Source of the DNA: Leptonemataceae bacterium
GTDB lineage: Bacteria; Spirochaetota; Leptospiria; Leptospirales; Leptonemataceae
Length of the DNA stretch: 64,000 nt
Assembly: GCA_965227295.1 (NCBI GenBank)
Contig: OZ245742.1
Location: 3,648,001 to 3,712,000, forward strand
Direction of reading: 5' to 3'
Both the position numbers and the translations under genes were made by a program. Below are positions 19,755 through 44,700 of this stretch, in pieces. The stretch's first letter is position 1; each line of letters begins with the position of its first letter. The notes under the pieces were generated by a model. That model was not told the DNA's origin. It ran no database searches and worked only from the letters and a program-made list of their open reading frames with translations.

Positions 19755-20558
19755 ATGCAGTACGACATAGCATCCAGGGAACTCATGATTATCAGCGGCC
19801 AAAAGATCCTGCAACGCTTCCTGCGTCGCGATCTTTCAGCAGTTCATACGATAGAAGAATTGCCGACAGAAACCGTTAATATCCGCCGATCCGATGCGCC
19901 GGTGAAGATGACGCTCTTAGACGGCGAAGAGCGTGTCGTCCTTGTGGAGTATCAGACGAACTGGGAGACGGGGCTGCCGATGCGTTTGGTGGAATATCAT
20001 GCGCGCTACTGGCTGCGATACCGCATTCCGGTCGATACGCTGGTCTTTCTGATTCGTCCGCACAAAGATGCACATGCGAGTTTCGAAAACCACGCCCTGA
20101 GGTTTCGTTATCATCTGGTGAAACTCTGGGAATTGCCCGCCGCGGAATTCATTCATGCAGAGCCGCCGCTGCTTCCGTTTATCCCCCTAATGGAGGACGG
20201 CGATCAATACATCCACCATGCGCAGGATCGCATTCAAGCGAGCAAACTTTCCGACGAAGAAAAAACCAGTTTACTTACTGTTTTATGCATCTATACTGGA
20301 GTCTACGATCCCGCCCGCGCGCGGGAAGTCTTAGACCGGGCAGGCAGGCTTATGTTTGAATCACCTGTATACGATTGGATCAAACAAGAAGGCGTTGAAG
20401 AGGGTCGTGAAGAGGGCATCGAGGAAGGCCGCGAGCAAGGCCGACTCGAAACCGCTCAGCGCATGTTAGAGCGCGGTATCGATCTTGCGACCGTGCTGGA
20501 CGTTACCGAACTTTCGGAAGATCTGCTGCGGCAACGCGGGGTTCTGCCGGCGGAGTAG
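19755..20558 (+). CDS. Rpn/YhgA-like PD-(D/E)xK recombination-promoting nuclease / putative transposase
   Basis: 'RRSD...LVEYQT' (ExQ variant); C-terminal 'EGVEEGREEGIEEGREQG...AQRML..G' tail. Confidence 0.8.
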   Translation: MQYDIASRELMIISGQKILQRFLRRDLSAVHTIEELPTETVNIRRSDAPVKMTLLDGEERVVLVEYQTNWETGLPMRLVEYHARYWLRYRIPVDTLVFLIRPHKDAHASFENHALRFRYHLVKLWELPAAEFIHAEPPLLPFIPLMEDGDQYIHHAQDRIQASKLSDEEKTSLLTVLCIYTGVYDPARAREVLDRAGRLMFESPVYDWIKQEGVEEGREEGIEEGREQGRLETAQRMLERGIDLATVLDVTELSEDLLRQRGVLPAE

Positions 20559-29485: not shown

Positions 29486-30691
29486 ATGCAAATCATCATT
29501 CGATTTACTCTAACAACTTTACTGATCAGTCTATCAATCACGTGCAGCACCGCCCTGAGTGTCGCCGCGCCGGAGTATCGTGAAGAAAACGTCCTCACCG
29601 AAGTGCGCAAGCATCACGAGGAGCTCGCCCCGCAGCTTCCGCGCAAATTTCGTAGCGGTAACGTAAGCCCGCAGCCCGTCGCGGCGCGGCCGGCGCCTAC
29701 ACAGTAACGCCGACAGACTACGGCTATCGTGCGCAGTTGCCCGCCGGCAACAATGCGAAGGGCGCCTTCATTCCCACGCCGGCCGCCTGTGACGGCGTGC
29801 TCGTGGTCAGCGGCGGTTTTCGACGTTACGAGTACTACGGCCTCGATGCGGAAACCGGCGAAATGCTCTGGGCCGTGAAGTTAAGCGACATCGGACCGTC
29901 GGGGCCGGTGTGTGAATTCGGAGTCGTGGTCTTCAACACGGAATCGTGCACCACGTTCGCGTGGCGTGCGAAGACCGGTGAGATGCTCTGGTCGCACTAC
30001 CTGGGCGATCCGCAAATGAGCGCACCGTCGATGCACAACGGCCGGGTGTTCGCGGCCTATCCCATCAAACACATCGCCCCCGGCGCATCGCGGGATGCGA
30101 GCCATGCTCTGGCCGCCTTCGCCGCGACGTCCGGGACCTTGCTGTGGCAGACCGTAATCGACGGCGACGTGATGACCGCGCCGGTGATCGTTAACGATCA
30201 GCAAGTTGTAGTTACGACCCTGGCCGGCACGCTCTACCTCCTGGACCAGGAAGACGGCACGATTCGCGCCGCCGCCCGGGCGCGCGGGACGAGTGCGCCG
30301 GTGTTCGTCGACGGCCAGCTGTATTACAGCCGCCGCACGGATGTTTTGTATGATTTGCGCATGCGGGAGGACCTCGCCGTGGCCGACGCTCTCTTGCAAC
30401 GCCGCCTCTCCCTGGGCGATGCGGACCCGGCGGGACGGGCGCATCTTCGTCAGCACGTATGTCGACGGAATCTGGGAGATCGATCCGCGGAGCGGTGAGA
30501 TTCTGCGCAAGTATCGGGATGCGGAGCAGGCCGCGCGGCTGCGATTCCAGCCGGTCATTCAGGACGGTCGCATCTTCGTGCCGACCGAAGACGACGCGTT
30601 GCTGTCGTTCGATACCGGGCGGCCGGAACTGACGGGCTGGAAGATGTGGGGCGGTAATGCCGGTCGGACGGGACAACCGGCACGCTGGTGA
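29486..30691 (+). pseudogene. PQQ-like beta-propeller secreted protein broken by two frameshifts
   Basis: Signal peptide in ORF 29486..29707; 'LDAETGEMLW' blades in the next frame; C-terminus 'DGRIFV...WKMWGGN' in another frame from about 30437. Confidence 0.7.
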
Positions 30692-30751
30692 TCAGCCGCG
30701 AAAGAACTGCTCCGGCAGCTTCGGCCGGGCGGCATGATGCCGTAACCAATT

Positions 30752-31003
30752 TTACTTTTCTTTCTCTTTCTCCAGCTCAATCGTCTGGCAGATATCCAGG
30801 CAGTCTTCACTGCACGCCGTGCGTTTGGATTGCGGGGAGAGCTTCGTGCAGGCCTTCTTTTCTTCGCACTGATTGATGCAGGTATAGGAATCGACCCAGT
30901 TTTCCAGGGCTTCTTCGCGTCCGAATTTTTCGCCGCCGGCGAAGAGCACGCCGGAGAAGGCGATGAGCAGAGTGAGGCCAATGAGGGCGAGGGTTTGTTT
31001 CAT
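30752..31003 (-). CDS. Small secreted six-cysteine protein
   Basis: Signal peptide 'MKQTLAL...VLFA'; pattern CxxxC-x5-C-x11-CxxxCxxxC. Confidence 0.65.
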   Translation of the reverse strand: MKQTLALIGLTLLIAFSGVLFAGGEKFGREEALENWVDSYTCINQCEEKKACTKLSPQSKRTACSEDCLDICQTIELEKEKEK

Positions 31004-31148
31004 GTAGACTGTTTTTCTCATGCGGGCTTTGGGATGGCAATCAGAATTTGCGGCGCGGCACGAAACAGCTATGAATCCAGCAGGAAATCCAGGCGTGTGT
31101 CGGTCTTCGCGGCGCTGATCTCAAGGATCTCCGCCCGGAAGCAGTGGA

Positions 31149-34100
31149 TCACAGCTTGTGGCCGCTGAACGCGAGGTCCTGCAGGACCCGGGTCGCGCCG
31201 GCATCGGCGCCGGCCTCGGTGACGACGACATCCCCGGTATTTAGATACAGCACGGCCGTCAGGCTTCCGTTGGGGCGTTGACCGGAACTTTCGCCCGCCC
31301 GGGCACGTCCACGGTAGTTGCCGTTGACACGCAGTTCGACGTACACGTCGTCGGTCGTGCTGCCGTCAAAGACACTGCTGATGAATTGAATGCTGAACGA
31401 GTAGAGTCCCGGCACCGGTGCTATAAACTGCGTGCCGTCGAAGGCGTTGCCGACGTTCGTGTAGATGTTGATGTAGTTCGTGATCGCCTGGCCTGAGCCG
31501 CTGGAGCTGTGATCGGTGACCGCATAGAAACCGATCTCCTGCTTCGGCGCGATGCCCGGCGACGTCAGCTTGAGTAACTGCACGCGGGTGTAGATTTCGG
31601 GTTCGCTGATATTGGAAGCGATGCCCATGTTACCGGCTTCCGAAGGCGCCGGAATGTAATGTTCAATGATGAACGTCTTCGGTGAGCTGATCTCGAAGAT
31701 ACCGGTGATCGAAGCCGTCGTAGAACCTATCCCTGCGCCCTGGTCTGCATAGGTATTGGTTCCGAAGAGTGCCACCGTTGAGTCCGTGATATTCGTCAGC
31801 CTGGCTCTCGTAATATTCACCCGGTGTGCCGGGACCTCGGCGTCGATCTGATACGTTCCAGCCGGGAGCGTGAACTGATTTCCGCTGAGGGCTACGCCGC
31901 TGATGTTTGTGTCGAGCATGTTCAGATCGCGCGTAACATAACCTCCCGCCGGCGGTTGCCCGCCCGGAGTTCCCGCCGGTTTCTGATCGTAGATCATCGC
32001 ATAGCCGCCGGTGTTGACCTGCAACGTATCGCGGACCTTCATGATCCAGACGACCGTCATGTTTACCGGACGGGTTTCGGTGCCGGTGCGCCCGTCCTTG
32101 ACCTCGTCGACGCCGGTGTACACGGCTTCGAAATTCGCGAATCCGTTGCCCAGGTCCGCATAGTAAGGAGGGCCGTTGAAAATCGGTCCGGTGCTTCGCC
32201 CGCGCAGGTAGTGCGTGTGGTCCTCGAACTGATCGTCCTCGAACGTGCCCGACGTCGTATCGCCGCGCAAAAACGCGCCCTTCGTATTCCAGGTCTCTTT
32301 CGGATTGTTGAGATCCGGCATGGTTTCGCCGTTGTAGATCGACTGCGGATCGATCAGCACCTGACCGTTACACTCCACCCAGCCGTCCGGCAATTGCGGC
32401 GTGCCGGCAAGCGACTTGTGCCAGGCGAGAATCGTGCCCACGGGCAGATGCGAGCCGCCGGCTGCCGTGCTCTGGAACGACCCGTCGGGAAAGAGAATGC
32501 CGTCGACGCCGGGGGTGCCGCCGACGTGTAACTTCGCCTGAGGAGAAGTTTGATCGATGCCGACGTTGCCGCGATCGTAGTTGATGCCGCCGCTGACCGC
32601 TTCCCACTGGCCGCCCAGGCCGGTGGCGTCGATGAGCTTCGTAATGTAAACCTGTGAGTAGATTTCGTCGAGGCCGGTGATGCCCGAGGCGACACCCATG
32701 TCGTTGCTGCCCCAGGAGGTTTGAATAAAGTGCTGAAGTTCGAACGTGGATTCGGAGCCGATACTGATCACGCCGGCGGCGGTGGCGATCGTGGAGTTGT
32801 TCGTGCCGCTTTCGTTGAACGCCGACTGCCCGTCCAGGGCCACATTGTTCGTGGAGAGGTTGTACAGACGCAGGCGATGTACGTCGGCGCGGTAGTTCGG
32901 TGCCGTGGCCAGTACACGGTACGTGCCCGGCGGTAAGGTAATCTGATTCGAATCTAAGGATACCCCGTCCAGGTTTGTGGCGACCGTATTCAGGTCCCGG
33001 GTGTTCCAGGAGTTTCCGACGGCTGTGCCGCCCTGGGTGGCCGACGGCTTGCGGTCTTCGAACAACGCATAGCCCGCCGTGGGTTCGACGAACGAGCCCA
33101 GGGTGACCTTCATGATCCACACCACGGCCATGTTCGCCGGGCGAGTTTCCATGCCGTAGCGCGGATTGCCGTTGATTTGATCATTCACCGGCCGTGTGCT
33201 CATGTGTTCAGCGACGGGGGAGTTGTTATCACCACCTCCGGCGCCGGTGTTATTCTGAGGATACTGACCTTCATTCGTGCCGGCATGAGGATACACGCGG
33301 TGAATGTGTCCCTGAAACGTATCCTGTTGCGGAGTGCCGCCGCTCGTGTTGCCGCCGCGGAGAAAGAGACCGCCTTCGTTCCAGGTATCCAGGGGATTGT
33401 TTAAATCCGGCGTGTTCATGCCGACGTACGGCGAATCCGGGTCCGTGATCTCCTGTCCATCACACTCCAACCAGCCGGGCGGGAGCGGTGGTATGCTGCC
33501 GTCGAAGTTCTTGTGCCACGCCAGGATCGTACCCAGCGGTAGATTGTCACCGCCGGAGATGGCGCCGTTCCCGCCGCCGCCCGCGGTGGTTTGCACGGAG
33601 CCGTCGGGAAAACGAATGCCCCCCGCCGTTGTTTCGATGACACCGCCGACGGTGAGCCGGGACGTGGGATTGTCCGTGCCCACGCCGACATTGCCGCTGC
33701 CGCTTTGAATGTAGAGTACGGACTGTTCCGAGGCGGAGAGGGCTTCTTCCGGATTAGAAGTTACTGAGGGATCATTAGCGGCGAAGCGCCGGATGAGATC
33801 GCGGCCGGGCAGGGCGAGGGTGGTATAGCTGCGATTGTTGTAGATGTCGAGGACTTCCGCTTCGGAGAGCCCGGAGTTGTAGACGCGCACGTCGTCCAGT
33901 TCACCGAACAGACCGCCGCCGGCATGAAAGGCCGCGGCGAGGCGCTTCGGATTCGCAAGGCTGACGGGTTCGGTCCGCGGCGGCACGTACGGATTCCCGG
34001 TGATGAAATCATTCGTGATGCGCTGGCCGTTGACGTAGGCCTCGAAGTCGGAGCCGCGGCGCGCGAGTACGAAGTGCGTCCAGATGCCGCGCGGATCGGG

Positions 34101-36845
34101 GATGACTGTTTGATACTGGGTGTAGACCGAAACGCCGGTGTAGTACACGAAGTGCCGTACGGTGGGCACGCCGGAGTTGATGTCCACTTCCAGGCCGAAG
34201 CTGTCGTCGACGATGCTGCCGTCTCCGCGAAAATCCAGGAAGACGTAGACGCCGTCACCGGCGCTCGCGTCGATTCTCACCCAGGCCATCACGGTAAAAT
34301 CGTTGAGGCTCGCCGGTGAATTGAAGGCCGGAACCGAGACGTACTCGTCCCCCGTGCCGGATTGCAGCGCCAGGTCGAAGCGGCCGGGCACCCAGGTCGT
34401 TCCGCCGACGGTCGTGCCGTTGTAGCCGTTGCCCGAGGTATCCAGGATGTTCGCCCCGGAGCCCTCGTCGAAGTTGTACGCGGCCAGCATGCCGTCGATG
34501 CGCCGCACGAAGACGTTGTCCGCCGACGTCGATGTCACGGCGTCCGGGTTGCCGTAGTACATGTAAATCGTGCGCGTACTGCCGCCGCTCAGGGTCGACA
34601 AGCGCACCCAGACGATTGTCGTGGCCGTGTTCACCCCGCTCTCGATCCAGTGCGGCAGGGCCGTGAGTTCGTCGTTGTCGAGGAACAATAGATCGCCGGC
34701 GTCCGCGCGCAGTTTGCCCGCGCCGATGAGGGCCGCCGTGTCGATCGTAAACTTTATCTGAAAATTACTTAAGGTTGATCCGTTGGCCGTGTTGTCGATC
34801 ACCAGGGGCATGCGATACGAGCGTCCGGCGACGCCCTGGATGGTGGCATCCACGCGCAGCGGCGTGTCGAGCGCATTCACCGAACGTACTCGCAGTCCGT
34901 CCTCGATTTCCAGAACGCCCGAGCTGTGGTCCGACTGGATGCGTCCGGCAATCGTAACGGTGTCTTCGTCCTGATCGCCCAGCAAAACGTCGCCGGGGAC
35001 CTGCTCGGTTTCTTTTGCGATGACATCGCCCCGCACGGTGAAGTTGCCTTTGACCTCTAAGTCGCCTTCGATGACATCGCCGGCGCGGTTGACCTTGATT
35101 TCGCCGAGGGTATCCAGGGCCTGGGCCACCGTTTCGACCCCGTCCATCAAATCATTGCTATCCGGGTCCGGAACCGGGGCGGGGCTGTGTTCCGTTGCCG
35201 TGCTGATGTTCTTGTGAGCACGAAAACGAACCACGGACTTCGTGGGATTGCCGTCCGCGTCGAGTAAGGTTGCCTGGGCTTGCTGGATGTCGCGCGCGGC
35301 GCCGGTGGTCCAGGTCACCGCGGCGATCCCGTCGGCGTCGGCGATGACGTTCACCGGGCTGCCGGTGTTGCCGGCGTCGGACGCGTCCGTGAGCGAACCC
35401 GCCCCGTCCACAATCTGAAAACGTACGGTGGACCCCGGCACCGGCTCCCGTCCCGCCGCCACGACGACCCGCAGTTCTTCCTGCAACGTCGCATTGGGCA
35501 GCAACGATTGGCCGTCCCCGCCGGCATAGTTCAGCACGGCGTCGCTCAGGGCCGGAAAGATGTGTCGCGCATCGGCGATTTCGCTAAACGTACCGCCGGT
35601 TAATCTTAGAAATCCCAGGCGCGCGTAGTGCCGCGTATTTTCGCTCCGCAGAGCGGCCGGTCCGGAGGCGGCCATGGGCCATTCAATGTTGCGGTTGGTA
35701 ACGCGGGCGGGAATCATCCAGTAGTCGCCGCTGCGATACAGACGTCCGGACGCCGCCGTATCGAAGGCGACTTCGATCCCGGCATCGAGTTCGAAAAACT
35801 CGCCGTCTTCCGGTACCGCGGGTTCGGCAAGCACGCTGATCGTATCCCAGAGTCGCAGTCGCCGGACTCCACGGTTGAAATCGTTAATATCCAGGGAAGT
35901 AATGCTAACATCGTAGTGTGCGATGCTGTCGGGATCGATGGTCAGGCTGTTCCCACTGACGGCGACGATTCGCGCAAGTGTGCCGGGCCGGCCTTCGAGT
36001 TCCAGGCCCTCATCAATGATCTCAATCCACTTGCCGGCCTGGAAGTCCGTCTCGCGATCCCGGCCGGTTCCGCGTACCGTGAGGGTGATGCCGTCGGATT
36101 CCAGGGCCAGCCACTCGCTTACGATTGTGCCGTTGTTGCGCGACCATTTGTACGTGGCGGTACCGGGCGCGCCCCCGTTGTGAATCTCCACTCGATAGAG
36201 AAGATTGTCCGATCCCGTGTAACCGCCGCGGGCGCCGATCTCGCACGGATCGGTGGAAACGCCGTCAGCGGCGGTGCGGGCCGTGAGCCGCCCGCGCGAG
36301 CTTTCCGCGTCGGCGTTGATCAATGTCGTCCACTCGGGAGGAATCGATGCCGCCGTGTAGTTCGCATCGGCGAGCTCCAGTAACTTCACCTGATGTAAGA
36401 TTTGCACCCGCGCGCTGCCGTCGATACCGCCCAGGGCGATCTCGCGGATGGCCGGATCTTCCAGCCAGGTAACTCCGCGGCGCCGGACTTCCAGGTAAGC
36501 CAGATACACGCCGTCATTCGCGGGCAGGGCGCTGCCGGGTAAATCAGCTTGTTCTGTGAAGAGAACGTCGGCGGCGTTTTCGCAGAGCAGGCCTTCGAGA
36601 TAAAAACGTCCCGCTGAAATCGTAAGGTCGGAGCCGGAGCCGTTCGGGCTTACGTGAAAACCTCCGTCCTCCCGCGGCGCACCGGAGCGGCCGATGCCGT
36701 CCCGAGCGAGGAGTGTGTCCCGGCGTACCGTCAGGTCGGCTTGCTCGTTCCAGTCGGCGTCCGTGAGGATGCGCCCCTGCTGCTGGCGCACAGATTCGTA
36801 GTTACGATCCGGCTGTAAAGAGTTCCGGGAAATGTCGGTTTTCAT
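31149..36845 (-). CDS. DUF6519-type tail-fibre-like mosaic protein (Ig-like, DUF2341, LamG, two tail-collar modules, C1q-like C-terminus)
   Basis: N-terminus 'MKTDISR...YESVRQQQGRILTDADWNEQ', 'GGYTGSDNLLYRVEIH', 'YRSGDYWMIPAR'; 'IYMYYGNP'; 'AAYNFDEGSG'; 'PxGTILAW..GWxECxGQ' twice; 'FIAPVPGLYSFS'. Confidence 0.85.
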   Translation of the reverse strand: MKTDISRNSLQPDRNYESVRQQQGRILTDADWNEQADLTVRRDTLLARDGIGRSGAPREDGGFHVSPNGSGSDLTISAGRFYLEGLLCENAADVLFTEQADLPGSALPANDGVYLAYLEVRRRGVTWLEDPAIREIALGGIDGSARVQILHQVKLLELADANYTAASIPPEWTTLINADAESSRGRLTARTAADGVSTDPCEIGARGGYTGSDNLLYRVEIHNGGAPGTATYKWSRNNGTIVSEWLALESDGITLTVRGTGRDRETDFQAGKWIEIIDEGLELEGRPGTLARIVAVSGNSLTIDPDSIAHYDVSITSLDINDFNRGVRRLRLWDTISVLAEPAVPEDGEFFELDAGIEVAFDTAASGRLYRSGDYWMIPARVTNRNIEWPMAASGPAALRSENTRHYARLGFLRLTGGTFSEIADARHIFPALSDAVLNYAGGDGQSLLPNATLQEELRVVVAAGREPVPGSTVRFQIVDGAGSLTDASDAGNTGSPVNVIADADGIAAVTWTTGAARDIQQAQATLLDADGNPTKSVVRFRAHKNISTATEHSPAPVPDPDSNDLMDGVETVAQALDTLGEIKVNRAGDVIEGDLEVKGNFTVRGDVIAKETEQVPGDVLLGDQDEDTVTIAGRIQSDHSSGVLEIEDGLRVRSVNALDTPLRVDATIQGVAGRSYRMPLVIDNTANGSTLSNFQIKFTIDTAALIGAGKLRADAGDLLFLDNDELTALPHWIESGVNTATTIVWVRLSTLSGGSTRTIYMYYGNPDAVTSTSADNVFVRRIDGMLAAYNFDEGSGANILDTSGNGYNGTTVGGTTWVPGRFDLALQSGTGDEYVSVPAFNSPASLNDFTVMAWVRIDASAGDGVYVFLDFRGDGSIVDDSFGLEVDINSGVPTVRHFVYYTGVSVYTQYQTVIPDPRGIWTHFVLARRGSDFEAYVNGQRITNDFITGNPYVPPRTEPVSLANPKRLAAAFHAGGGLFGELDDVRVYNSGLSEAEVLDIYNNRSYTTLALPGRDLIRRFAANDPSVTSNPEEALSASEQSVLYIQSGSGNVGVGTDNPTSRLTVGGVIETTAGGIRFPDGSVQTTAGGGGNGAISGGDNLPLGTILAWHKNFDGSIPPLPPGWLECDGQEITDPDSPYVGMNTPDLNNPLDTWNEGGLFLRGGNTSGGTPQQDTFQGHIHRVYPHAGTNEGQYPQNNTGAGGGDNNSPVAEHMSTRPVNDQINGNPRYGMETRPANMAVVWIMKVTLGSFVEPTAGYALFEDRKPSATQGGTAVGNSWNTRDLNTVATNLDGVSLDSNQITLPPGTYRVLATAPNYRADVHRLRLYNLSTNNVALDGQSAFNESGTNNSTIATAAGVISIGSESTFELQHFIQTSWGSNDMGVASGITGLDEIYSQVYITKLIDATGLGGQWEAVSGGINYDRGNVGIDQTSPQAKLHVGGTPGVDGILFPDGSFQSTAAGGSHLPVGTILAWHKSLAGTPQLPDGWVECNGQVLIDPQSIYNGETMPDLNNPKETWNTKGAFLRGDTTSGTFEDDQFEDHTHYLRGRSTGPIFNGPPYYADLGNGFANFEAVYTGVDEVKDGRTGTETRPVNMTVVWIMKVRDTLQVNTGGYAMIYDQKPAGTPGGQPPAGGYVTRDLNMLDTNISGVALSGNQFTLPAGTYQIDAEVPAHRVNITRARLTNITDSTVALFGTNTYADQGAGIGSTTASITGIFEISSPKTFIIEHYIPAPSEAGNMGIASNISEPEIYTRVQLLKLTSPGIAPKQEIGFYAVTDHSSSGSGQAITNYINIYTNVGNAFDGTQFIAPVPGLYSFSIQFISSVFDGSTTDDVYVELRVNGNYRGRARAGESSGQRPNGSLTAVLYLNTGDVVVTEAGADAGATRVLQDLAFSGHKL

Positions 36846-37002
36846 ACTGCGTCTCCGGTCCGCAGTACGCGGGTACGATCGATCGTCGCAACCGGCTCTT
36901 GCTGTGAGATCTATCGTGTTCGGGTTTTATCCGCGTGAATTGTATATGTTTACCGGAGGACGGCTTTACGGAGCAGAGTGTGCAGGAAAGCATGGTTGTC
37001 GC

Positions 37003-37422
37003 ATGAACTACTGGCTGATCAAGAGCGAACCCTATGAATACAGCTTCGCGGACCTGGAACGCGAAGGGGAATCCATGTGGGACGGCATCCGGAACTACCA
37101 GGCCCGCAACAATCTGCGCGAAATGAAAAAAGGCGACAAACTCTTGTTCTATCACAGCAACGAGGGCCTGGAGATCGTCGGCATTGCGAAAGTGGTGAAG
37201 GCGGCGTATCCGGATCCCACGGTCAAGGCCGACGCGAAACAAAAGGACTGGTCCGCCGTCGACGTGGCCCCGGTGAAACGGCTGAAACGCGGCGTGAGTC
37301 TCAAAGAAGTTAAGGCCGATCCCGTGTTGAAAGAGAGCGCCCTGGTGAAGAACTCGCGGTTGTCCGTGCAGCCGTTTACGAAAGAGCAATTCGATCGCGT
37401 GGTGGAGCTGTCTAAGAGTTGA
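37003..37422 (+). CDS. EVE domain protein
   Basis: 'MNYWLIKSEP', 'WDGIRNYQARN', 'FYHSN', 'SRLSVQP'. Confidence 0.95.
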   Translation: MNYWLIKSEPYEYSFADLEREGESMWDGIRNYQARNNLREMKKGDKLLFYHSNEGLEIVGIAKVVKAAYPDPTVKADAKQKDWSAVDVAPVKRLKRGVSLKEVKADPVLKESALVKNSRLSVQPFTKEQFDRVVELSKS

Positions 37423-37425
37423 TCA

Positions 37426-37544
37426 ACCACCGAGGCTCCGAGGTCACCGGGGAAGATTGGGGAGCGCGTACGTACTGGAATTGCGCGCCGGCTACGATCA
37501 CGCTCTACTTCTTTTTGTCTCGGCGCCCTCGGTGTCTCGGTGGT
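37426..37544. repeat. Inverted pair of family B repeats (37426-37451 +, 37519-37544 -)
   Basis: ACCACCGAG GCTCCGAG GTCACCGGG on plus and ACCACCGAG ACACCGAG GGCGCCGAG on minus, between convergent genes. Confidence 0.75.
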
Positions 37545-38131
37545 TGATTCCTGATTTTCTCGTAACAATGGCAGTCGATCGTATGATCGTTCACCATGCC
37601 CACGGCCTGCATGAACGCATACACGATCGTCGGGCCCACGAACTTGAAGCCGCGCTGTTTCAGTTCCTTGCTCATGGCCTGCGCTTCTTTCGTTTCGGTG
37701 GGCACCTGCTTGATGTTCTTCCAGGCGTTCTGGATCGGCCGGCCGTCCACGAAGTCCCACAGAAAATCGGCGAAGGATCCGAGTTCGTCGCGTAGTTTTA
37801 AGTATGCCTTCGCATTGCCGATGAACGCGTCGATCTTCAAACGATTGCGCACGATGCCCTCGTTCTTTAACAGCGCCTCACGTTTCTTTTGCGTGTAGCG
37901 CGCCATCTTTTCGGCGTCGAATTGATCGAAGGCCTTGCGATAGCCGTCGCGTTTTTTTAAGATGATGAACCAGCTCAGGCCGGCCTGGGCGCCGTCCAGC
38001 AGTAACTTCTCGAACAGCGCGCGGTCGTCGTACTCCGGCACGCCCCATTCGGTGTCATGGTAGTGCTCGTACATCTCATTGCCTGCGGGAACCCAGGCGC
38101 AACGGATGATGGGATTCTTCGATTCAGGCAT
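37505..38131 (-). CDS. tag: DNA-3-methyladenine glycosylase I
   Basis: 'RCAW', 'YHDTEWG', 'QAGLSW', 'GFKFVGPT', 'NDHTIDC'. Confidence 0.95.
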   Translation of the reverse strand: MPESKNPIIRCAWVPAGNEMYEHYHDTEWGVPEYDDRALFEKLLLDGAQAGLSWFIILKKRDGYRKAFDQFDAEKMARYTQKKREALLKNEGIVRNRLKIDAFIGNAKAYLKLRDELGSFADFLWDFVDGRPIQNAWKNIKQVPTETKEAQAMSKELKQRGFKFVGPTIVYAFMQAVGMVNDHTIDCHCYEKIRNQPPRHRGRRDKKK

Positions 38132-38795
38132 CAAACGAACACGCAATGATTCTGCTGATGTGTGCGAACGGTCGTCCGCTTTCTTGCTGCCACGTACCAA
38201 ACGCGTCCTGCACGGCGGCCCAGTCGCGTTTCGATGACGGATCTTTTTTTACGACGCCCTGGTGAATCAAATAGCCCGTAACATCCTTCGAAAGCAGGAA
38301 GGTGTCCTTGCCCATGCCGCGCAGAAAGTAGAGGCCGGAGTTTCCGCCCAGGCGTGAGGCCCGCTTTTTTAGAAGATCGCGGAGTCCGACGATGTCCGTC
38401 GCCGGCCAATCGGCCACGAACTTCGCGAAGCTCCCGTGTTCTTTCTGAATGTCCGTGATGAATACCGCGTTCGCCCGTACGGTTTTGATCTTCATGAAAT
38501 TGCGCACGATGCTCGCGTCGGCGGCGAGTTTTTCCAGGGCCTCGTCGCTCAGTCGCGCGCACTTGCGCGGATCAAAGCCGGCGAAGGCGCGCTCGAAGTT
38601 CGGCCACTTGTTCTCAATGACCTGCCAGGAAAAACCCGCGCGAAAGACACAGGCGGTCATCTCCGCCAGGAAACGATCGTCGGGTATATTGCTCAGTTGT
38701 TTCGCGGATCTGACTTTCGGAAGGAGCTTTTCCAGTTCCTGTTCACCGCCCTTGCGTTTGGCAGCGCGGGCATAGATTCTTGCGAAGGGCTCCAT
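38124..38795 (-). CDS. Second Tag-family glycosylase-like protein
   Basis: 'VFRAGFSWQVIENKWPNFERAF', 'IVRNFMKI'; lacks the zinc ligands of canonical Tag. Confidence 0.85.
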   Translation of the reverse strand: MEPFARIYARAAKRKGGEQELEKLLPKVRSAKQLSNIPDDRFLAEMTACVFRAGFSWQVIENKWPNFERAFAGFDPRKCARLSDEALEKLAADASIVRNFMKIKTVRANAVFITDIQKEHGSFAKFVADWPATDIVGLRDLLKKRASRLGGNSGLYFLRGMGKDTFLLSKDVTGYLIHQGVVKKDPSSKRDWAAVQDAFGTWQQESGRPFAHISRIIACSFDA

Positions 38796-39819: not shown

Positions 39820-41568
39820 TTACCGCGACGCGGACTGCGCCGGCGGTTCGATGGTTTTCTGGATCTTCAGATCGGCCTTGTTGAAGACCTGGATCGTCGT
39901 CTTGTCACCGGAGCGCGGTTTGCCCGTGAGATAGATCTTCTCTTTGTAGAAGGTGATGTCCGAGTAGGGGCTGACCGGATCCGAGGACTGTGCGTCCAGG
40001 GTAAGGTCGGTGTTAAAGCGTGCCAGGAAGAACTCGCCGTCCTTTTCCATGATGGCGTAGATCTTGCCGTCCTGAATGATCATCGGCGTGTCCCAGTAGA
40101 CGCGCTCGGCAGACTCTTTCGATTTATCGAGGGTCTCGGTATCCAGCATTACCAGGCGGTGCTGAGACGGATCGTCCACTTCGCCGATGTAGCCGGTTAC
40201 CAGGACGCCGGTGTCCGGCACCACGATGAAATCCCGGGAACAGATTTTCGTATAGCTGGAACGCTTGAGGGCGTCGTTCGCCGCGGCGTCGATGAACCAC
40301 AGCTCGTTGTTGTAGTGGCCGTCGTTGGTATAACGGAGAACGCGCATGAAGAGGATCTTATCCTGCACGACGTTGTCGGAGACCTCTTCCTCTTTTTCGA
40401 GAGGTTTGTTCTCTTCCTGGTCCTTCTGATCGCCGGTGGTGTCGGTCGTATCCGTCGTTGTGTTCGCGTTGGTGTCGTCGGTGTTCGTATTGACCGCGGT
40501 TTCTTCCTGCTGGTCCTTCTGCGTTTCCTCGGCGACTTCCTGTTGCTGCTCTTTGACTTCTTCTTGCTTTTGCTGGGTCTCTTCTTGCTGCTTCTGGACT
40601 TCTTCCTGCTTCTTGGCGATCTCTTCTTGTTTCTTTTCCGCTTCTTTGACGGCTTCTTCGGCTTCTTTTACGTCTGCCGGATCGGCGTTCGGATCGTCGC
40701 GCAGTTCTTCGAGGCGGCGGCCGGTGTCTTCACGCTCGCTCTCGGCCTGCTCCTGTTGTTTCTTCAGTTCTTCTTCTTGTTTCTTGAGGTCTTCTTGTTG
40801 TTTCTTCAGTTCGTCGTCTTTCTGATCGAGCTTTTCCTGTTCGTCCTCGCGACGATCGTCCGTTATCTCTTCGAATTCCTTTTTCTCGGAATCTTCGGCG
40901 TTCTTCGTTTCGTCTTCGATTTCCTTGTTGTTGAGGTCCGTTTCGCCCGGGCGTACGGCGGACTTACGCAGCGGCAGAACCATCTGCGTGTTGCCGGCCC
41001 AGTTGCGATACGTGCGGTCGATGCCGAGTTTCTCTTCGGCCACGGCGGCCGCGACTTCCTCGGAATACTTCTCGGTGATGAGCGACATGTTGCCGCGGTT
41101 GTTGGCGTTGTAGTAGAGCACGAAACGAGCGATCACGGCCGCGTCGTTTTCATCGTATTCGAACGCCTTCATTAAGTAACCGGTGAGCACGCGCTCGACC
41201 CGGTTGATGTGACCGATGCTGCTGTTCGGCTGGATCGTGATGATATCGGCGCCGTATTTGTCGCTCTCGCGGTTGAATACGCGGCGGATGGTGATGCCGT
41301 TGTTCTCTGAGCGCTGGTTTTCCACGACCTCGTCGGCCATGGTCCCCCCGGAGTTGATTTCCGCGCGGCGCTGGGCCGGGGTGAAGGGGACGTTGCTCCG
41401 GTTGACGAAGTCCACCTCGGGAGACTTGATTTCGTCCCGGTCCACGCTGGGACGATTGGTCTCACCGACCCCCGTGCCGCCGTTTTGCGGCAACAATTGT
41501 GCGCCGGGGAGCGTTAAGAAGATTACAAAAAATCCGAGAACAAAAGAAGCGATCCGTTTGCCGTTCAT
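39820..41568 (-). CDS. Spirochaetal P83/100 family protein
   Basis: 'HINRVERVLTGYL..AFEY...ARFVLYYNANNRG'; central E/K/Q-rich coiled coil; signal peptide. Confidence 0.8.
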   Translation of the reverse strand: MNGKRIASFVLGFFVIFLTLPGAQLLPQNGGTGVGETNRPSVDRDEIKSPEVDFVNRSNVPFTPAQRRAEINSGGTMADEVVENQRSENNGITIRRVFNRESDKYGADIITIQPNSSIGHINRVERVLTGYLMKAFEYDENDAAVIARFVLYYNANNRGNMSLITEKYSEEVAAAVAEEKLGIDRTYRNWAGNTQMVLPLRKSAVRPGETDLNNKEIEDETKNAEDSEKKEFEEITDDRREDEQEKLDQKDDELKKQQEDLKKQEEELKKQQEQAESEREDTGRRLEELRDDPNADPADVKEAEEAVKEAEKKQEEIAKKQEEVQKQQEETQQKQEEVKEQQQEVAEETQKDQQEETAVNTNTDDTNANTTTDTTDTTGDQKDQEENKPLEKEEEVSDNVVQDKILFMRVLRYTNDGHYNNELWFIDAAANDALKRSSYTKICSRDFIVVPDTGVLVTGYIGEVDDPSQHRLVMLDTETLDKSKESAERVYWDTPMIIQDGKIYAIMEKDGEFFLARFNTDLTLDAQSSDPVSPYSDITFYKEKIYLTGKPRSGDKTTIQVFNKADLKIQKTIEPPAQSASR

Positions 41569-41741
41569 GTGCGTGAGTATCCGTGAATAAAGATCGAGCG
41601 TTGCCCGTATTACATAGGATCGGAACGCGGGGCGTCAAATTGTATTTCCCGATTCACGAATTCCCGGTGATTTCCCTGAAAAAATTCTTGCTGTGCCCGC
41701 CGCGGTTTCCGACATAATCAGGTCGATTTAACGCGGTTCCT

Positions 41742-44700
41742 GTGCAGCGCATTCTCGCGGCCTACGCCGACCATTATCTGCGTCCCTGTCTGTCGGACAT
41801 TTTGAACGGTTCTCCGCTCGGCGGTGTGCTGCCGGCCTCGTTCGCCTTTTTCGCCGCATCCCTCTATCAACTGCTCGAAGAACCCGCCGCCGGGCGCTGT
41901 CTCGTCATCGCCACTCCCTCAAACCAGGAGGCGGAGACCCTTGCCGGGGAGTCCCTGCTGTATCTGGAGCCGGATGCCGTGGCCTACTTTCCCGGCTACG
42001 AGAACATTCCGTATGAGTACTCGAGTTCCAGCGCCGATATCGCCCTGCAGCGCATTCGGGTGCTGTCCCGTGTCGCGGGCGGAGAGCGCCTGCTGGTTTT
42101 CACCGGCGCCGACGCGGTCTCACGAAAAATGCCGCATCCGGATCGCCTGAGCCGGCTGAGCCGCCGCCTGCGCGTGGACGATGAGATTCCACCCCGGGAA
42201 CTGTTACGTTCTCTGGTGGACATGGGCTACCAGCGGGAAGAGCGCGTGGAAGCGCCGGGTCAGTTCGCCCTCAAGGGTTCCGTGCTGGACGTCTATCCGG
42301 TCAACGGCGATCAACCCGTGCGCATCGAGTACTTCGACGATTATATAGAAAGCATTCGTTACTTCAGCGCGAATACCCAGCTCGGCGCCGATCGTACGCC
42401 GGAGTGTGAAATTCTGCCGGCCGGCGAGGTCGTCCTCGACGGCGACGAGAGCGCGCGGCTCCGCACGGCCCTGCAGAAGTACGCAAAGGATCTGGATCGT
42501 CCCGCTTTTTTGCACGAGGCCGCCGCGGATACGGCTTATTCGCAGTTTCACCATGCCGGCCTCCAGGAGCTCTTCCCCCTCGTTGCCGACAGCACCGATG
42601 TCTTCGCGGCCTTTCCGGAAGCACCGGTCGTTCTAAGCTATCCGGCGAACGAAGTGAATGAGGCCGCGGCCCGCATCCGCCGTGAGTTTCTGACGTTGTA
42701 TCGCCGCGAGCACGAGCAGCGCATTTGCCTGGAGCCCGAGACGTTGTTGGTTCCATTCCCGGGCGAACGCACGATAACGCCGCTCTATCGTCTGTCCAAA
42801 CCCATCGAAGACGCCGGAGCGACGGACGAGTCGGAAGATGATGCAGTTGATGCCGTGGATGATGAGGATGCGGGCCATGATCCAGACGAGAGCACGGATG
42901 AAAGGGTCGCCGTGTCATCTACGCTGGGCGTGCGCGAGGTGATCGGCTTCGGCGGACGCATCGCGGAAGTACGAGAGAAGATTCGCGGTTTGCTGGTGGA
43001 TGAACAGGCCGTGGTCTGCATTTCATCGCCCTACGCGGCACAGATGCGACGCATCGCCGGACTCTTCCGTCACGAGCAGGACATCGAAATCCGCATGATC
43101 GGCGACACCGAGGAGACGGCCGGCGCCGGCCCGATCCTCCTCGGCAATACCGCCGGTAAAAAGAAGAAGTCTGCGAAAAAGAAGGCGCTGCCGGCGCTGC
43201 ACATCCTGCGCTCCTCGCATCAACAGGGCTTTGAGATTCCGGAGCTGAAGTTCTACTTACTTACGGACAGCGAGATCTTCGGGCGCTCCTATCGCCGCCG
43301 CACGCGCTTCAAGAAACTCGGCACCGTGCCCATCGAATCGTTCCTGGACCTGAAAGAGGGCGACTACGTCGTGCACGTCAACCACGGGGTGGGGCGTTTC
43401 GAAAAACTCGAAAAGGTGCGCGCCGCCGGCCGGGAGCGCGACTTCCTGGTCCTGGAATACGCGGACAAAGATAAACTTTTCGTACCTTTAGATCAGATCT
43501 CCATGGTCCAGCGCTATATCGCGCCCACGGAGAAGCCGCGCCTGGATTCATTGGGCAAGGCCTCGTTTAAGAAAGTCCGCGAGCGCGTCGAACAGAAAAT
43601 CGAAGAGTTCGCCGGCGAATTGGTGCGTCTCTACGCGTTGCGCATGTCGCGCAAGGGCTACGCCTACCCGGCCGATACGGCCTGGCAGGAAGAGTTCGAG
43701 GCGGACTTTCCGTTCGAAGAGACGCCGGACCAGATCACCGCCATCGAAGCGGTGAAGCGCGACATGGAAGCCCCGCAGCCCATGGACCGACTGATCTGCG
43801 GGGACGTGGGCTACGGCAAGACCGAGGTGGCCATCCGGGCGACGTTCAAGGCCGTTATGGCCGGCCGCCAGGTGGCCATTATTGCGCCGACAACGATTCT
43901 CGCGCTCCAACACTACCACAACTTTCGCGAACGCTACAAAAACTACCCGGTTTCCGTGGACTGGATCTCGCGCTTTCGCTCGCGCGCAGAAACGAAAGAA
44001 ATCAAACAAAAACTCCTGCACGGCGAACTGGACGTGGTCGTCGGCACCCACGGCCTGTTATCGAAGGACATCCACATTCGCAACCTCGGCCTGCTCGTTG
44101 TCGATGAGGAACAACGCTTCGGGGTCACACACAAAGAGGCCATCAAACGCATGCGCGAGCTGGTGGACGTGCTCACGCTCTCGGCGACACCCATCCCGCG
44201 GACGTTGCACATGTCCCTCGTGGGCATTCGTGATCTTTCCATCATACAAACGCCGCCCCGGGATCGATTGCCGGTGCAGACCTACGTCATCGACGACAAC
44301 GATACGATCATCGAAGAAGCAATCGCGCGGGAGCTGGAACGCGACGGCCAGATCTTTTATTTGCACAACCGCATCGAGAGCATCGAGGGCGTGGCCGATC
44401 GCGTGCAGAACCTGCTGCCGGAAGTCCGGCTCGCCGTGTTGCACGGCCGCATGCTCGAAGAAGAGATCGAAGACGTCCTCTTACAATTCATGGAGCGCAA
44501 GTTCGACGTGCTCATCACGACGGCCATCATTGAAAACGGCATCGACATGCCCAACGTGAACACGCTCATCGTGGACCGCGCCGATACCTTCGGCCTCTCC
44601 CAGTTGTATCAGATCCGCGGTCGCGTCGGCCGCGCCGGGCGCCAGGCCTACGCCTATCTCTTACATTCATCCGGACGCATCTTAACGGAGACCGCGCAGA

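Follow-up and report, generated by a model that had tools for sequence, protein, structure and literature searches.

The stretch analysed here, referred to as the window, covers 64,000 nucleotides of the genome of a Leptonemataceae bacterium (contig OZ245742.1, positions 3,648,001 to 3,712,000). On its reverse strand, at 31149..36845 (-), lies P0001, a single intact ATG-started ORF of 1898 residues, which we describe as a probable off-locus tail fibre of the eBAP5/DUF6519 type, serving a contractile injection system (eCIS). All domain coordinates given below are window positions on this (-) strand. A preliminary description had presented the gene as DUF6519-type and tail-fibre-like; the boundaries it gave for the ORF are exact, and DUF6519, DUF2341, LamG, two Collar stretches and C1q were all found. 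Every Pfam match of the protein exceeds the curated cut-off, and the search of the NCBIfam families returned zero matches. The GC3 of the gene (0.77) is similar to that of the adjoining genes. Read directly, the N-terminus MKTDISRNSLQPDRNYESVRQQQGR lacks any hydrophobic stretch, and neither a signal peptide nor another export signal can be seen there, in agreement with the earlier reading; the missing signal peptide would fit assembly of the fibre in the cytoplasm.

The N-terminal domain (residues 1-436; 35538..36845) is the DUF6519/eBAP5 baseplate-anchor or 'shoulder' domain. The preliminary description had assigned the first ~430 residues to DUF6519, and the Pfam match is indeed a strong one (E 2.4e-50, 172.1 bits against a cut-off of 22.4), falling in two stretches within residues 1-414. 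All 15 columns that are invariant across 82 family members are kept. A paper of January 2026 (PMC12923769) names DUF6519 eBAP5 and describes it as the domain that anchors eCIS tail fibres in the baseplate; it finds the domain on 658 fibre genes, ties it to Tail_P2_I-type baseplates and, for the docking on Tail_P2_I proteins, offers a structure prediction. The link between DUF6519 and eCIS baseplates, put forward in the preliminary description, is thus in print, and it was reproduced independently here in 69/79 related loci (see below). An AF2 model of residues 1-450 (pLDDT 91.9, pTM 0.88) has the shoulder-like fold broken by an inserted beta domain that is described for this family (PMC12923769), with the insertion, a beta-barrel, at about residues 240-334. 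The split shoulder (model residues about 25-436) aligns to phage receptor-binding proteins (RBPs), namely those of lactococcal phage 1358 (Z 8.8) and phage p2 (Z 6.8), as well as to Mtd (Z 7.0), TssK (Z 6.6 and 6.3) and the Anabaena CIS baseplate chain 7b5h_AA (Z 6.3), while residues 240-334 align on their own to small beta-barrels (Z 6-8.4). The shoulder scores, 6.3-8.8, are moderate and lie in the range (Z 6-9) that the tool calls common for unrelated matches, and thus the weight of the fold argument lies in the identity of the matching proteins, not in their Z values.

The remainder of the protein is modular. Residues 437-560 (35166..35537) may form an Ig-like domain; in the domain architecture proposed earlier this is the one part that is no more than a candidate, since the segment has zero Pfam matches in this protein and the Big_1 matches in the equivalent region of two paralogues are sub-threshold. 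It is followed by a shaft segment without a family match that is kept among the paralogues (residues 561-714; 34704..35165), by DUF2341 (residues 715-789; 34479..34703; Pfam E 8.1e-15) and by a LamG, or concanavalin-A-like, lectin domain (residues 831-998; 33852..34355; Pfam Laminin_G_3, E 2.1e-15). Converted to window positions, the last two span 34703-33852, in line with the earlier placement at about 34820-33840. Fibre repeat segment 1 (residues 1040-1100; 33546..33728) matches Bdellovibrio Bd2133 (8ond_A) with an E of 1.4e-9 over 48 residues, and recurs at residues 1405-1466.

Two collar-plus-tip modules make up most of the C-terminal half. Phage tail-collar module 1 (residues 1101-1255; 33081..33545) is recognized by Pfam Collar (PF07484; two stretches in the protein, 29.3 bits against a cut-off of 24) as well as by PHROG tail and collar-fibre families, and the conserved Collar motif begins at residues 1102 and 1467. 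The putative tip-like jelly-roll 1 that follows (residues 1256-1404; 32634..33080) matches the tail-fibre families phrog_6320 and phrog_24210 and, judging from the internal repeat detected by blastp, is a copy of the module at residues 1612-1764. Fibre repeat segment 2 and tail-collar module 2, with the second Collar stretch and the motif at residue 1467, occupy residues 1405-1611 (32013..32633), a region that is poorly modelled as a monomer (pLDDT below 50). The TNF-like jelly-roll tip domain 2 (residues 1612-1764; 31554..32012) was assigned from the model, from fold matches and from phrog_24210 (E 8.6e-46). Averaged over blocks of 10 residues, model positions 221-360 of the residue 1400-1898 model reach pLDDT values of 79-98, and this domain aligns to the short-fibre binding domain of cyanophage A-1(L) (Z 13.5, rmsd 4.2, 140 residues aligned) and to the TNF protein Eiger (Z 11.3). 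A search for shorter relatives of the tip found 16, each covering about half of the query, and zero with a C1q Pfam domain.

The protein ends in a C1q globular head (residues 1770-1898; 31152..31538), supported by Pfam, fold and sequence. Pfam C1q spans residues 1773-1896 with 32.5 bits against a cut-off of 23.7. As a monomer model, the head aligns to human Caprin-2 C1q (Z 16.8, rmsd 2.0, 118 residues aligned), to C1QL1 (Z 16.3) and, in Foldseek, to C1QL2 (E 1.6e-6), and its sequence matches solved C1QL2 and cerebellin structures with E values of 4e-5 to 4e-3. The C1q/TNF-like C-terminal head of the preliminary description is thereby borne out.

The surroundings of the gene contain no contractile-system gene. 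The 19 other ORFs between window positions 20000 and 50000 are housekeeping or unnamed genes, and all genome matches to the sheath, tube, Baseplate_J, Pvc16_N and Tail_P2_I families fall outside 3648001-3712000, as had been claimed for contractile-system genes in the window. A divergent intergenic region of ~155 bp (36846..37000), read directly and presumed to hold the promoter, separates the fibre gene from an EVE-domain gene, whose start is most likely the ATG near 37001 rather than the ORF start at 36832. No sigma-70-like site was found in 30600-37200, and terminator-like sites in the same interval occur at the level of shuffled sequence (8 vs 6.2). In addition, none of the upstream 8-10-mers is common to more than two of the seven fibre genes of this genome (see below), and no sigma-54-like site was found in the 12 upstream regions searched, which comprise fibre genes and eCIS operons; this lack of an upstream k-mer or sigma-54-like site common to this gene and the other fibre genes or eCIS operons speaks against supply in trans. 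A prophage origin was also considered and rejected. Among 103 ORFs, namely those within 10 kb of the six other DUF6519 copies and those in window positions 20000-50000, zero phage structural families were found except for one fibre-chaperone gene beside another paralogue, and no capsid, portal or terminase family was present.

The description of the gene as an orphan holds for its locus but not for the genome, a closed chromosome of 5.94 Mb in which six further DUF6519 genes are dispersed. All seven ORFs are intact, encoding 1218-1988 residues. The paralogues are 41-51% identical overall, their anchors are 47-58% identical to the anchor described above, and each keeps the family-invariant anchor residues. 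The seven proteins have the anchor and most of the shaft in common and differ in their tips, which are of the C1q, collar, EPTP propeller or FG-GAP propeller type; a phage tail-fibre assembly chaperone gene lies directly downstream of one of them. In a quick tree, our fibre clusters with a C1q-type pair from two congeners (support 93), and an EPTP-type off-locus lineage is present in three genomes (support 99). The DUF2341-LamG clade, which includes this gene, is off-locus in all three genomes. By tblastx, the flanks of the gene have no synteny with those of the C1q-type orthologues (loci L044 and L045): L044 gives zero flank HSPs and L045 a single 68-residue HSP, over the start of the fibre gene. 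The position of the fibre gene is thus not conserved, which also counts against supply in trans.

The genome contains three complete eCIS loci, each with a Tail_P2_I-type baseplate: eCIS1 (1.572-1.594 Mb), eCIS2 (2.796-2.818 Mb) and eCIS3 (5,706,418-5,726,961). The contractile-system genes that the preliminary description had proposed to look for elsewhere in the genome are therefore present, and its reading of the gene as an alternative fibre for an eCIS encoded elsewhere is the best supported one, given these loci and the DUF6519-eCIS link. Wherever DUF6519 was seen, eCIS genes were present too, both among 251 genomes sampled from the phylum and among 31 relatives. Within the 251 genomes, DUF6519 and Pvc16_N each occur in one, and it is the same one; among the 31 relatives, DUF6519 and Tail_P2_I co-occur in the same 4 genomes.

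Several lines of evidence point to eCIS3 as the partner. In this genome, it is the only locus with a 750-aa Tail_P2_I-like adaptor (E 2.4e-4 to Tail_P2_I). We examined 79 related loci in species-representative genomes, drawn from the best 80 of 592 relatives and hence not a random sample. In 69/79, the DUF6519 gene stands directly after a homologue of this adaptor, which ends within 450 bp upstream of it (E 1e-14 to 1e-223). Where the upstream DNA sufficed, the adaptor homologue is usually preceded by two eCIS3-type Baseplate_J genes, gp25 and a spike gene. All 71 of 71 adaptor matches in the related loci are to the eCIS3 adaptor; the short Tail_P2_I proteins encoded in eCIS1 and eCIS2 account for 0, and short and long adaptors have zero blastp similarity to each other at E 1e-3. 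The adaptor of eCIS3 keeps 20/20 columns that are invariant in 49 family members. eCIS1 and eCIS2 carry their own in-locus fibres with a different N-terminal anchor, which hhalign, run with single sequences, matches to the DUF6519 profile with a probability of 0.2. Between the collar tips of the eCIS1 fibres and the tips of three DUF6519 paralogues, identity amounts to 42-51%, which shows that fibre-tip modules are common to two different anchor types in one genome. A complex prediction of adaptor residues 200-750 with fibre residues 1-440 from separate alignments scored 0.00 with controls not run, and counts neither way.

eCIS3 looks intact, with open genes for sheath, tube, terminator, AAA+ ATPase, CIS_tube, spike, gp25, two Baseplate_J proteins and the adaptor, and its proteins are 46-87% identical to their orthologues in the congener G251. 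In G251, the adaptor is immediately followed by three DUF6519 genes (2652, 1621 and 5454 aa), spaced by 78, 14 and 76 bp, which stand between it and a TPR gene. With both flanks syntenic, the same interval measures 236 bp in our genome compared with 29.4 kb of fibre genes in G251, and the 236-bp junction is spanned unchanged by a contig from a second assembler. With only 236 bp between the adaptor and the TPR gene, eCIS3 demonstrably lacks fibres: it has lost its resident ones, and all fibres of the cognate type are encoded elsewhere. It follows that eCIS3 probably has no fibres other than those of the seven scattered DUF6519 genes, which would then be its sole supply and not an addition. The notion of a stand-alone alternative fibre is therefore retained in that an eCIS, now named as eCIS3, is encoded elsewhere, and revised in that the gene is one of seven that probably form the sole repertoire. 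The gene lies about 2.02 Mb from eCIS3, among housekeeping genes, which in itself speaks against a trans-encoded fibre.

Taken together, we consider the gene to be a functional trans-encoded tail fibre of the eBAP5/DUF6519 anchor type with eCIS3 as its partner, and put the probability of this at about 0.68. We infer that the protein trimerises and that its shoulder domain (residues 1-436) attaches to the eCIS3 baseplate via the 750-aa Tail_P2_I-like adaptor, much as TssK docks on TssG in type VI secretion. The remainder would form a long shaft with the LamG lectin, the two collar-plus-TNF-like modules and the terminal C1q head, domains that are themselves assigned from sequence and fold. On a target cell, these modules may then recognize glycans or proteins as ligands and so trigger sheath contraction. 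The seven DUF6519 genes would constitute the whole fibre repertoire of eCIS3, giving one machine several target specificities. Slightly below even odds, in our estimate, is the fuller scenario in which eCIS3 deleted its three resident fibres and became wholly dependent on the seven trans-encoded ones, such that particles could be mixed or switched through regulation of single genes with the operon left untouched.

The same loss could alternatively be the first step in the decay of eCIS3, with the dispersed genes serving something else, and the fibre family and the machine may be uncoupling. The gene might also encode an adhesin or lectin that has been domesticated to act independently of injection particles and has kept its old anchor as a scaffold for trimerisation or display, resembling the dispersed chimeric fibres on the surface of Bdellovibrio itself. 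In favour of this, no eCIS gene is linked to it, the seven scattered family members differ in their tips, as is the pattern in the Bdellovibrio family, and similarities to Bdellovibrio fibres are found both in the 48-residue repeat (Bd2133, E 1.4e-9) and in the C1q head, which aligns to the tip of the Bd2439 fibre (Z 10.9). An adhesin is nevertheless made less likely by the lack of a visible export signal, by the retention of every family-invariant anchor residue in paralogues that are just 41-51% identical overall, by the placement of the anchor gene directly after the baseplate adaptor gene in 69/79 related loci (from the best 80 of 592 relatives) and by the finding that, among the genomes sampled, DUF6519 occurs only together with eCIS genes. 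We regard this explanation as unlikely, though it is the strongest competitor of the trans-fibre reading.

A genuine eCIS fibre could also dock on eCIS1 or eCIS2 by using their short Tail_P2_I proteins as adaptors. Tail_P2_I genes exist in both loci, the eBAP3 and eBAP5 anchors have both been linked to Tail_P2_I adaptors (PMC12923769), and the similarity of the eCIS1 collar tips to those of three paralogues (42-51%) indicates that modules do move between systems. Both loci have their own differently anchored fibres, however, and the 71/71 upstream-adaptor matches of the 750-aa type (0 of the short type), together with the absence of blastp similarity between short and long adaptors at E 1e-3, make such docking improbable. 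Less probable again, to the point that we give it very little weight, is that the gene has lost its function and is an as yet undecayed remnant of a rearranged eCIS locus or prophage. The gene is unlinked to its system, and no recognizable promoter emerged from the searches for sigma-70-like sites, sigma-54-like sites and shared k-mers; the 5.7-kb ORF is nonetheless intact with a host-like GC3 of 0.77, all seven paralogues are intact, the anchor invariants are kept, orthologous lineages persist in three species, and no phage capsid, portal or terminase family occurs among the 103 ORFs scanned.

The target cells of eCIS are determined by their fibres, and eCIS particles are studied as programmable protein-delivery devices. 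A closed chromosome with a fibreless cognate locus and seven intact fibres with the matching anchor elsewhere makes supply in trans concrete and testable. If it is true, many 'fibreless' eCIS loci, thought to act intracellularly, may be supplied in trans, and an eBAP search of whole genomes rather than of loci could change the count of extracellular eCIS. The published fibre catalogue covers eCIS loci together with the five genes flanking them to either side and terms loci without a nearby fibre 'likely fiberless systems' (PMC12923769).

Among known proteins, the metazoan C1QL1-3, cerebellin and Caprin-2 C1q domains share the jelly-roll of the last 129 residues (Z 16.3-16.8, 22-23% identity), which also reach the Pfam threshold for C1q; unlike in the metazoan proteins, the head ends a bacterial fibre and stands behind two further TNF-like domains. 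The chimeric fibres of Bdellovibrio form a multi-gene family that is dispersed on the chromosome, trimeric and equipped with exchangeable tips. Their similarity to our fibre extends to the fibre repeat (Bd2133, 8ond, E 1.4e-9) and to the TNF-like tip fold (Bd2439, 8ol4, Z 10.9), but they lack DUF6519, sit on the predator's own surface and are not known to be linked to a contractile system.

TssK acts inside the cell as a connector to the membrane complex, has neither a long shaft nor a C1q head and, as far as is known, is always encoded in the T6SS cluster. The shoulder fold aligns to TssK (5y0e and 6n38), the partner of TssG, over 149 residues (Z 6.6) and 168 residues (Z 6.3), and the docking proposed for eBAP5 on a Tail_P2_I/TssG-like adaptor is analogous (PMC12923769). 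A Pfam scan at E up to 0.1 lists no TssK family for the fibre, and no sequence similarity to TssK was detected; the fibre would thus act in the manner of TssK when docking, without belonging to its family.

The fibre also resembles the catalogued eBAP5 fibres, which belong to the same N-terminal Pfam family, have a shoulder-like fold with an inserted beta domain, are long and modular with lectin-type and C1q-type tips, and have a Tail_P2_I-type baseplate in the same genome (PMC12923769). C1q on eCIS fibres is itself presented as an example of gene transfer in Nachmias et al. (Nat Commun 2026, PMC12923769). Unlike the catalogued fibres, whose genes come after Baseplate_J, gp25 or Tail_P2_I in the eCIS operon, this gene has housekeeping neighbours and lies ~2 Mb away, with all seven copies off-locus and the cognate locus without any. 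The terms orphan, elsewhere, outside and Spirochaet are absent from the main text of that paper (PMC12923769), and literature searches on orphan eCIS tail fibres and on leptospiral contractile injection systems gave no report of off-locus eCIS fibres. The in-locus DUF6519 fibres of the congeners G251 and G252, three in number, differ in standing directly after the adaptor and in having Kelch-type tips, yet their anchors are 44-49% identical to ours over 450 residues, and they belong to the same eCIS3-type operon, with proteins 46-87% identical to those of eCIS3.

P0001, the fibre protein under study, is the product of a single ATG-started ORF (1898 aa; window 31149-36845, minus strand). Its Pfam matches, all above the curated cut-offs, bear out most of the composition proposed in the preliminary description: DUF6519 at the N-terminus, in two stretches inside residues 1-414 (E 2.4e-50), DUF2341 (residues 715-789), Laminin_G_3 (LamG; residues 831-998), phage tail Collar in two stretches with motifs starting at residues 1102 and 1467, and C1q (residues 1773-1896). 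A hydrophobic N-terminal signal sequence is absent, as had been described. An Ig-like segment had also been proposed and could not be confirmed: residues ~437-560 show no Big_1 match, not even below threshold, and sub-threshold Big_1 matches occur only at the equivalent place in two paralogues. A tip-like domain of ~150 residues recurs behind each collar, and a fibre repeat of 48 residues has a match in the Bdellovibrio fibre Bd2133 (E 1.4e-9). Nine PHROGs phage-protein families are matched, seven of them classed as tail proteins (best phrog_24210, E 8.6e-46, two matches), while an NCBIfam search named no family. Neither a recognisable promoter for the fibre gene nor an upstream motif common to the fibre genes was found.

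Several neighbouring features of the window are recorded here. Directly downstream of the fibre gene, a small ORF (window 30753-31020, minus strand) has a signal-peptide-like start, several cysteines and no Pfam match. Two tandem ORFs at 37508-38795 (minus strand; 74 bp overlap) both match methyladenine glycosylase; the second, spanning profile positions 30-114 of 177 only, is possibly a duplicate or a broken copy. The ORF at 39823-41568 (minus strand) is homologous to the spirochaete P83/100 protein (E 1.6e-52) and coincides with the strongest AT skew of the window (-0.345 at 40001-42000).

Residues 1-450 of P0001, modelled from an 82-row alignment of translated loci, gave a pLDDT of 91.9 and a pTM of 0.88. 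On comparison with 48,161 solved chains, model residues about 25-436 align as a discontinuous shoulder with the receptor-binding protein (RBP) of lactococcal phage 1358 (Z 8.8, rmsd 3.8, 140 aligned), Bordetella phage Mtd (Z 7.0), the phage p2 RBP (Z 6.8), two TssK structures (Z 6.6 and 6.3; 149 and 168 aligned) and the Anabaena CIS baseplate chain 7b5h_AA (Z 6.3, 167 aligned); values below 8 may reflect a common arrangement, and for the shoulder the kind of matching protein outweighs the score. Residues 240-334 align separately with small beta-barrels (Z 6-8.4). Foldseek gives the anchor just one match below E 1e-3, to a baseplate chain of phage phi812 (E 2.2e-5, low TM).

Residues 1400-1898 were modelled as a monomer from a 35-row alignment. 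The second collar is poorly modelled (pLDDT below 50), as may be expected when one chain of an intertwined trimer is modelled alone. Residues 1612-1764 are well modelled as a TNF-like jelly roll, resembling the short-fibre binding domain of cyanophage A-1(L) (Z 13.5), Eiger TNF (Z 11.3) and Chlamydia Pgp3 (Z 11.2). The C1q head (residues 1772-1898), also well modelled, matches the C1q domains of Caprin-2 (Z 16.8, rmsd 2.0, 118 aligned, 23% identity) and C1QL1 (Z 16.3) and, by Foldseek, C1QL2 (E about 1e-6); at the sequence level, too, it is similar to solved structures of C1QL2, C1q-related factor and cerebellins (E 4e-5 to 4e-3).

The window (3,648,001-3,712,000) belongs to a single 5.94-Mb contig, in which a six-frame search matched DUF6519 14 times, within seven long open frames at 0.44, 0.62, 1.72, 2.62, 3.68 (the P0001 gene), 5.47 and 5.80 Mb, of 1218-1988 aa. 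The gene had been called an orphan, which holds in that no eCIS locus adjoins it but not in that six further DUF6519 genes exist. The six paralogues are 42-51% identical to P0001 over the first 435-1250 residues, and five of them also have DUF2341 and LamG. Their C-termini differ: three carry a single collar tip, one a seven-bladed EPTP propeller and one FG-GAP repeats, and the 1218-aa copy has a sub-threshold Collar match only. Among the seven, the double collar with C1q is unique to P0001.

An eCIS encoded elsewhere had been suggested, and searches for sheath, tube and Baseplate_J genes found three eCIS loci, which were annotated with Pfam on 60 crudely called ORFs. In eCIS1 (1.572-1.594 Mb), a short Tail_P2_I gene is followed by two collar-tipped proteins (500 and 460 aa), and in eCIS2 (2.796-2.818 Mb) by a 614-aa protein. 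eCIS3 (5.706-5.727 Mb, minus strand) encodes sheath, tube, Pvc16_N, AAA+ ATPase, eCIS_core, CIS_tube, spike, gp25, two different Baseplate_J proteins (829 and 1316 aa) and a 750-aa adaptor whose N-terminus matches Tail_P2_I (E 2.4e-4). None of the seven DUF6519 genes lies inside or adjoins these loci. Of 103 ORFs called in window 20000-50000 and up to 10 kb from the six other copies, one encodes a phage tail-fibre assembly chaperone, immediately downstream of the 1.72-Mb paralogue; the rest are housekeeping or unnamed.

The chaperone gene (Phage_tail_APC, E 9e-19) accompanies only the EPTP-tipped paralogue (L023:5173-7169 and L023:13166-16138; genome about 1,713,170-1,724,138); a pentapeptide-repeat gene comes next, and a sigma-54 activator with a 7TMR-DISM sensor lies upstream. 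The eCIS1 fibres (L028:1409-2908 and L028:2953-4332; genome 1,589,409-1,592,335) have a non-DUF6519 anchor and collar tips 42-51% identical to those of the 0.44-, 2.62- and 5.47-Mb paralogues, so in this one genome two injection systems that differ in anchor seem to have tip modules in common. Three eCIS_core (DUF4157) proteins of eCIS2 (632, 613 and 336 aa; L029:1542-6968; genome 2,796,542-2,801,971) are candidate cargo. In eCIS3-type loci two different Baseplate_J genes stand in tandem, and the 1316-aa protein of eCIS3 (L031:13685-17632; genome 5,708,682-5,712,632) contains a WD40-type beta-propeller (residues about 340-550).

A scan with the anchor alignment, over one genome per species, yielded 592 relatives, of which the best 80 were kept, giving 79 loci whose six-frame ORFs were searched with the eCIS proteins of the source genome (phmmer, E below 1e-5). 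In 69 of these 79 loci, which are best-scoring and not a random sample, the DUF6519 gene has a homologue of the eCIS3 adaptor (E 1e-14 to 1e-223) ending no more than 450 bp upstream of it; in loci with 10 kb of upstream DNA, homologues of both Baseplate_J proteins (1316 and 829 aa), gp25 and spike usually come before the adaptor. Seven of the ten non-adjacent loci (L043-L046, L048, L058 and L059) coincide with places in the congeners G251 and G252 and a further relative, G258; with these set aside, adjacency is 69/72. Of the remaining three, L047 has its adaptor about 1 kb upstream, L063 includes just 692 bp of upstream DNA, and in L077 the adaptor is encoded on the opposite strand. Judged by gene order, DUF6519 is clearly the fibre anchor cognate to eCIS3-type baseplates. 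One locus labelled as a Spirochaetes MAG (L120) has the DUF6519 gene directly after the adaptor gene, the ordinary in-locus order, so the off-locus state is not general to spirochaetes.

Among 31 relatives, DUF6519 and Tail_P2_I occur in the same four genomes (the source genome, G251, G252 and G258), and Pvc16_N in these plus G259; in a 251-genome sample of the phylum, DUF6519 and Pvc16_N are each found in the source genome only. In G251, three DUF6519 genes (2652, 1621 and 5454 aa) follow the adaptor gene with gaps of 78, 14 and 76 bp, and the order of matches in G252 is the same. The third (L038-L039; G251:C2:1,301,728-1,318,092) is a single open frame of 5454 aa; frames in G258 measure 3472-3650 aa. 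By tblastx, 5,706,425-5,716,000 of the source genome corresponds on the baseplate side to G251 1,331,090-1,340,650, and on the other side a TPR gene (5,705,684-5,706,037) corresponds to a G251 gene (1,300,971-1,301,324). Between these flanks lie 29.4 kb of fibre genes in G251 but 236 bp in the source genome. Because nearly every other lineage has fibres after the adaptor, loss of the resident eCIS3 fibres by deletion is the simpler reading. A 33.6-kb contig from another assembler (run X1) spans the junction without difference; this run may be the source of the genome itself and serves as an assembly check, not as an independent sample.

With the domains and folds of P0001, the family-level linkage of anchor and adaptor genes, an apparently intact fibreless eCIS3 and seven maintained off-locus fibres, we read P0001 as an off-locus (trans-encoded) tail fibre of eCIS3, the seven fibres giving one machine several specificities (probability about 0.68). 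Loss of the resident fibres could instead mark decay of eCIS3. The rest of the locus is open, at 46-87% identity to its G251 orthologues (tube 87%, adaptor 65%), and the adaptor retains 20/20 columns invariant in a 49-row family alignment. Two differences from G251 were noted at eCIS3: a 437-aa ORF (genome 5,722,722-5,724,035, in L032) is not matched in blastp by the 433-aa ORF in the corresponding place of the G251 operon, and the Pvc16_N protein has 419 aa versus 532 aa; a variable cargo slot could explain this, or else a local rearrangement. That P0001 docks on eCIS1 or eCIS2, which have fibres of their own, is improbable: all 71 adaptor matches in the 79 loci are to the eCIS3 protein and none to the short Tail_P2_I proteins, and the eCIS1 and eCIS2 fibres, which share an N-terminal region of their own (some 200 residues, 28-30% identical from one locus to the other), do not resemble the DUF6519 profile (hhalign probability 0.2).

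An adhesin independent of any eCIS, which had been considered from the outset, is unlikely given the anchor linkage, though it ranks ahead of the eCIS1/eCIS2 alternative. The closest outside homologues of P0001 share its architecture, C1q included, and are 56-57% identical to it in the anchor and 49-55% over the last 500 residues; no eCIS genes were found upstream in their loci, and their flanks are not syntenic with those of the P0001 gene, so these genes have changed position. Least probable of all is that P0001, away from any eCIS locus, is a relic. All seven DUF6519 genes are intact, and the off-locus anchors retain 15/15 columns invariant among 82 family members. A quickly computed maximum-likelihood tree of 25 anchors, with SH-aLRT support only, clusters the EPTP-type genes of the source genome, G251 and G252 (support 99), groups P0001 with another source-genome paralogue and the two C1q-type genes from G251 and G252 (93), and sets the whole DUF2341-LamG clade beside the second in-locus fibre (92). 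By these cross-species groupings, the off-locus lineages are older than the split of these species.

As a fibre of eCIS3, P0001 would trimerise; its LamG, TNF-like and C1q modules would bind target-cell ligands and trigger contraction. TssK docks on TssG, and by analogy the P0001 shoulder may dock on the 750-aa adaptor.

DUF6519 has been named eBAP5, one of five N-terminal baseplate-anchor domains on eCIS fibres, present on 658 fibre genes (PMC12923769, Nat Commun 2026). That catalogue covers eCIS loci plus five genes either side, and loci without a nearby fibre are judged 'likely fiberless systems'. In a literature search and the main text of PMC12923769, we found no published report of an eCIS with every fibre encoded off-locus. 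The DUF6519 family, its eCIS-anchor role and C1q-tipped eCIS fibres are already in print there, as is the use of Tail_P2_I adaptors by eBAP3 and eBAP5 loci, based on predicted complexes. The modelled P0001 anchor agrees with the eBAP5 description in that text, a shoulder-like domain with an insertion, and the analogy with TssK on TssG is drawn there as well.
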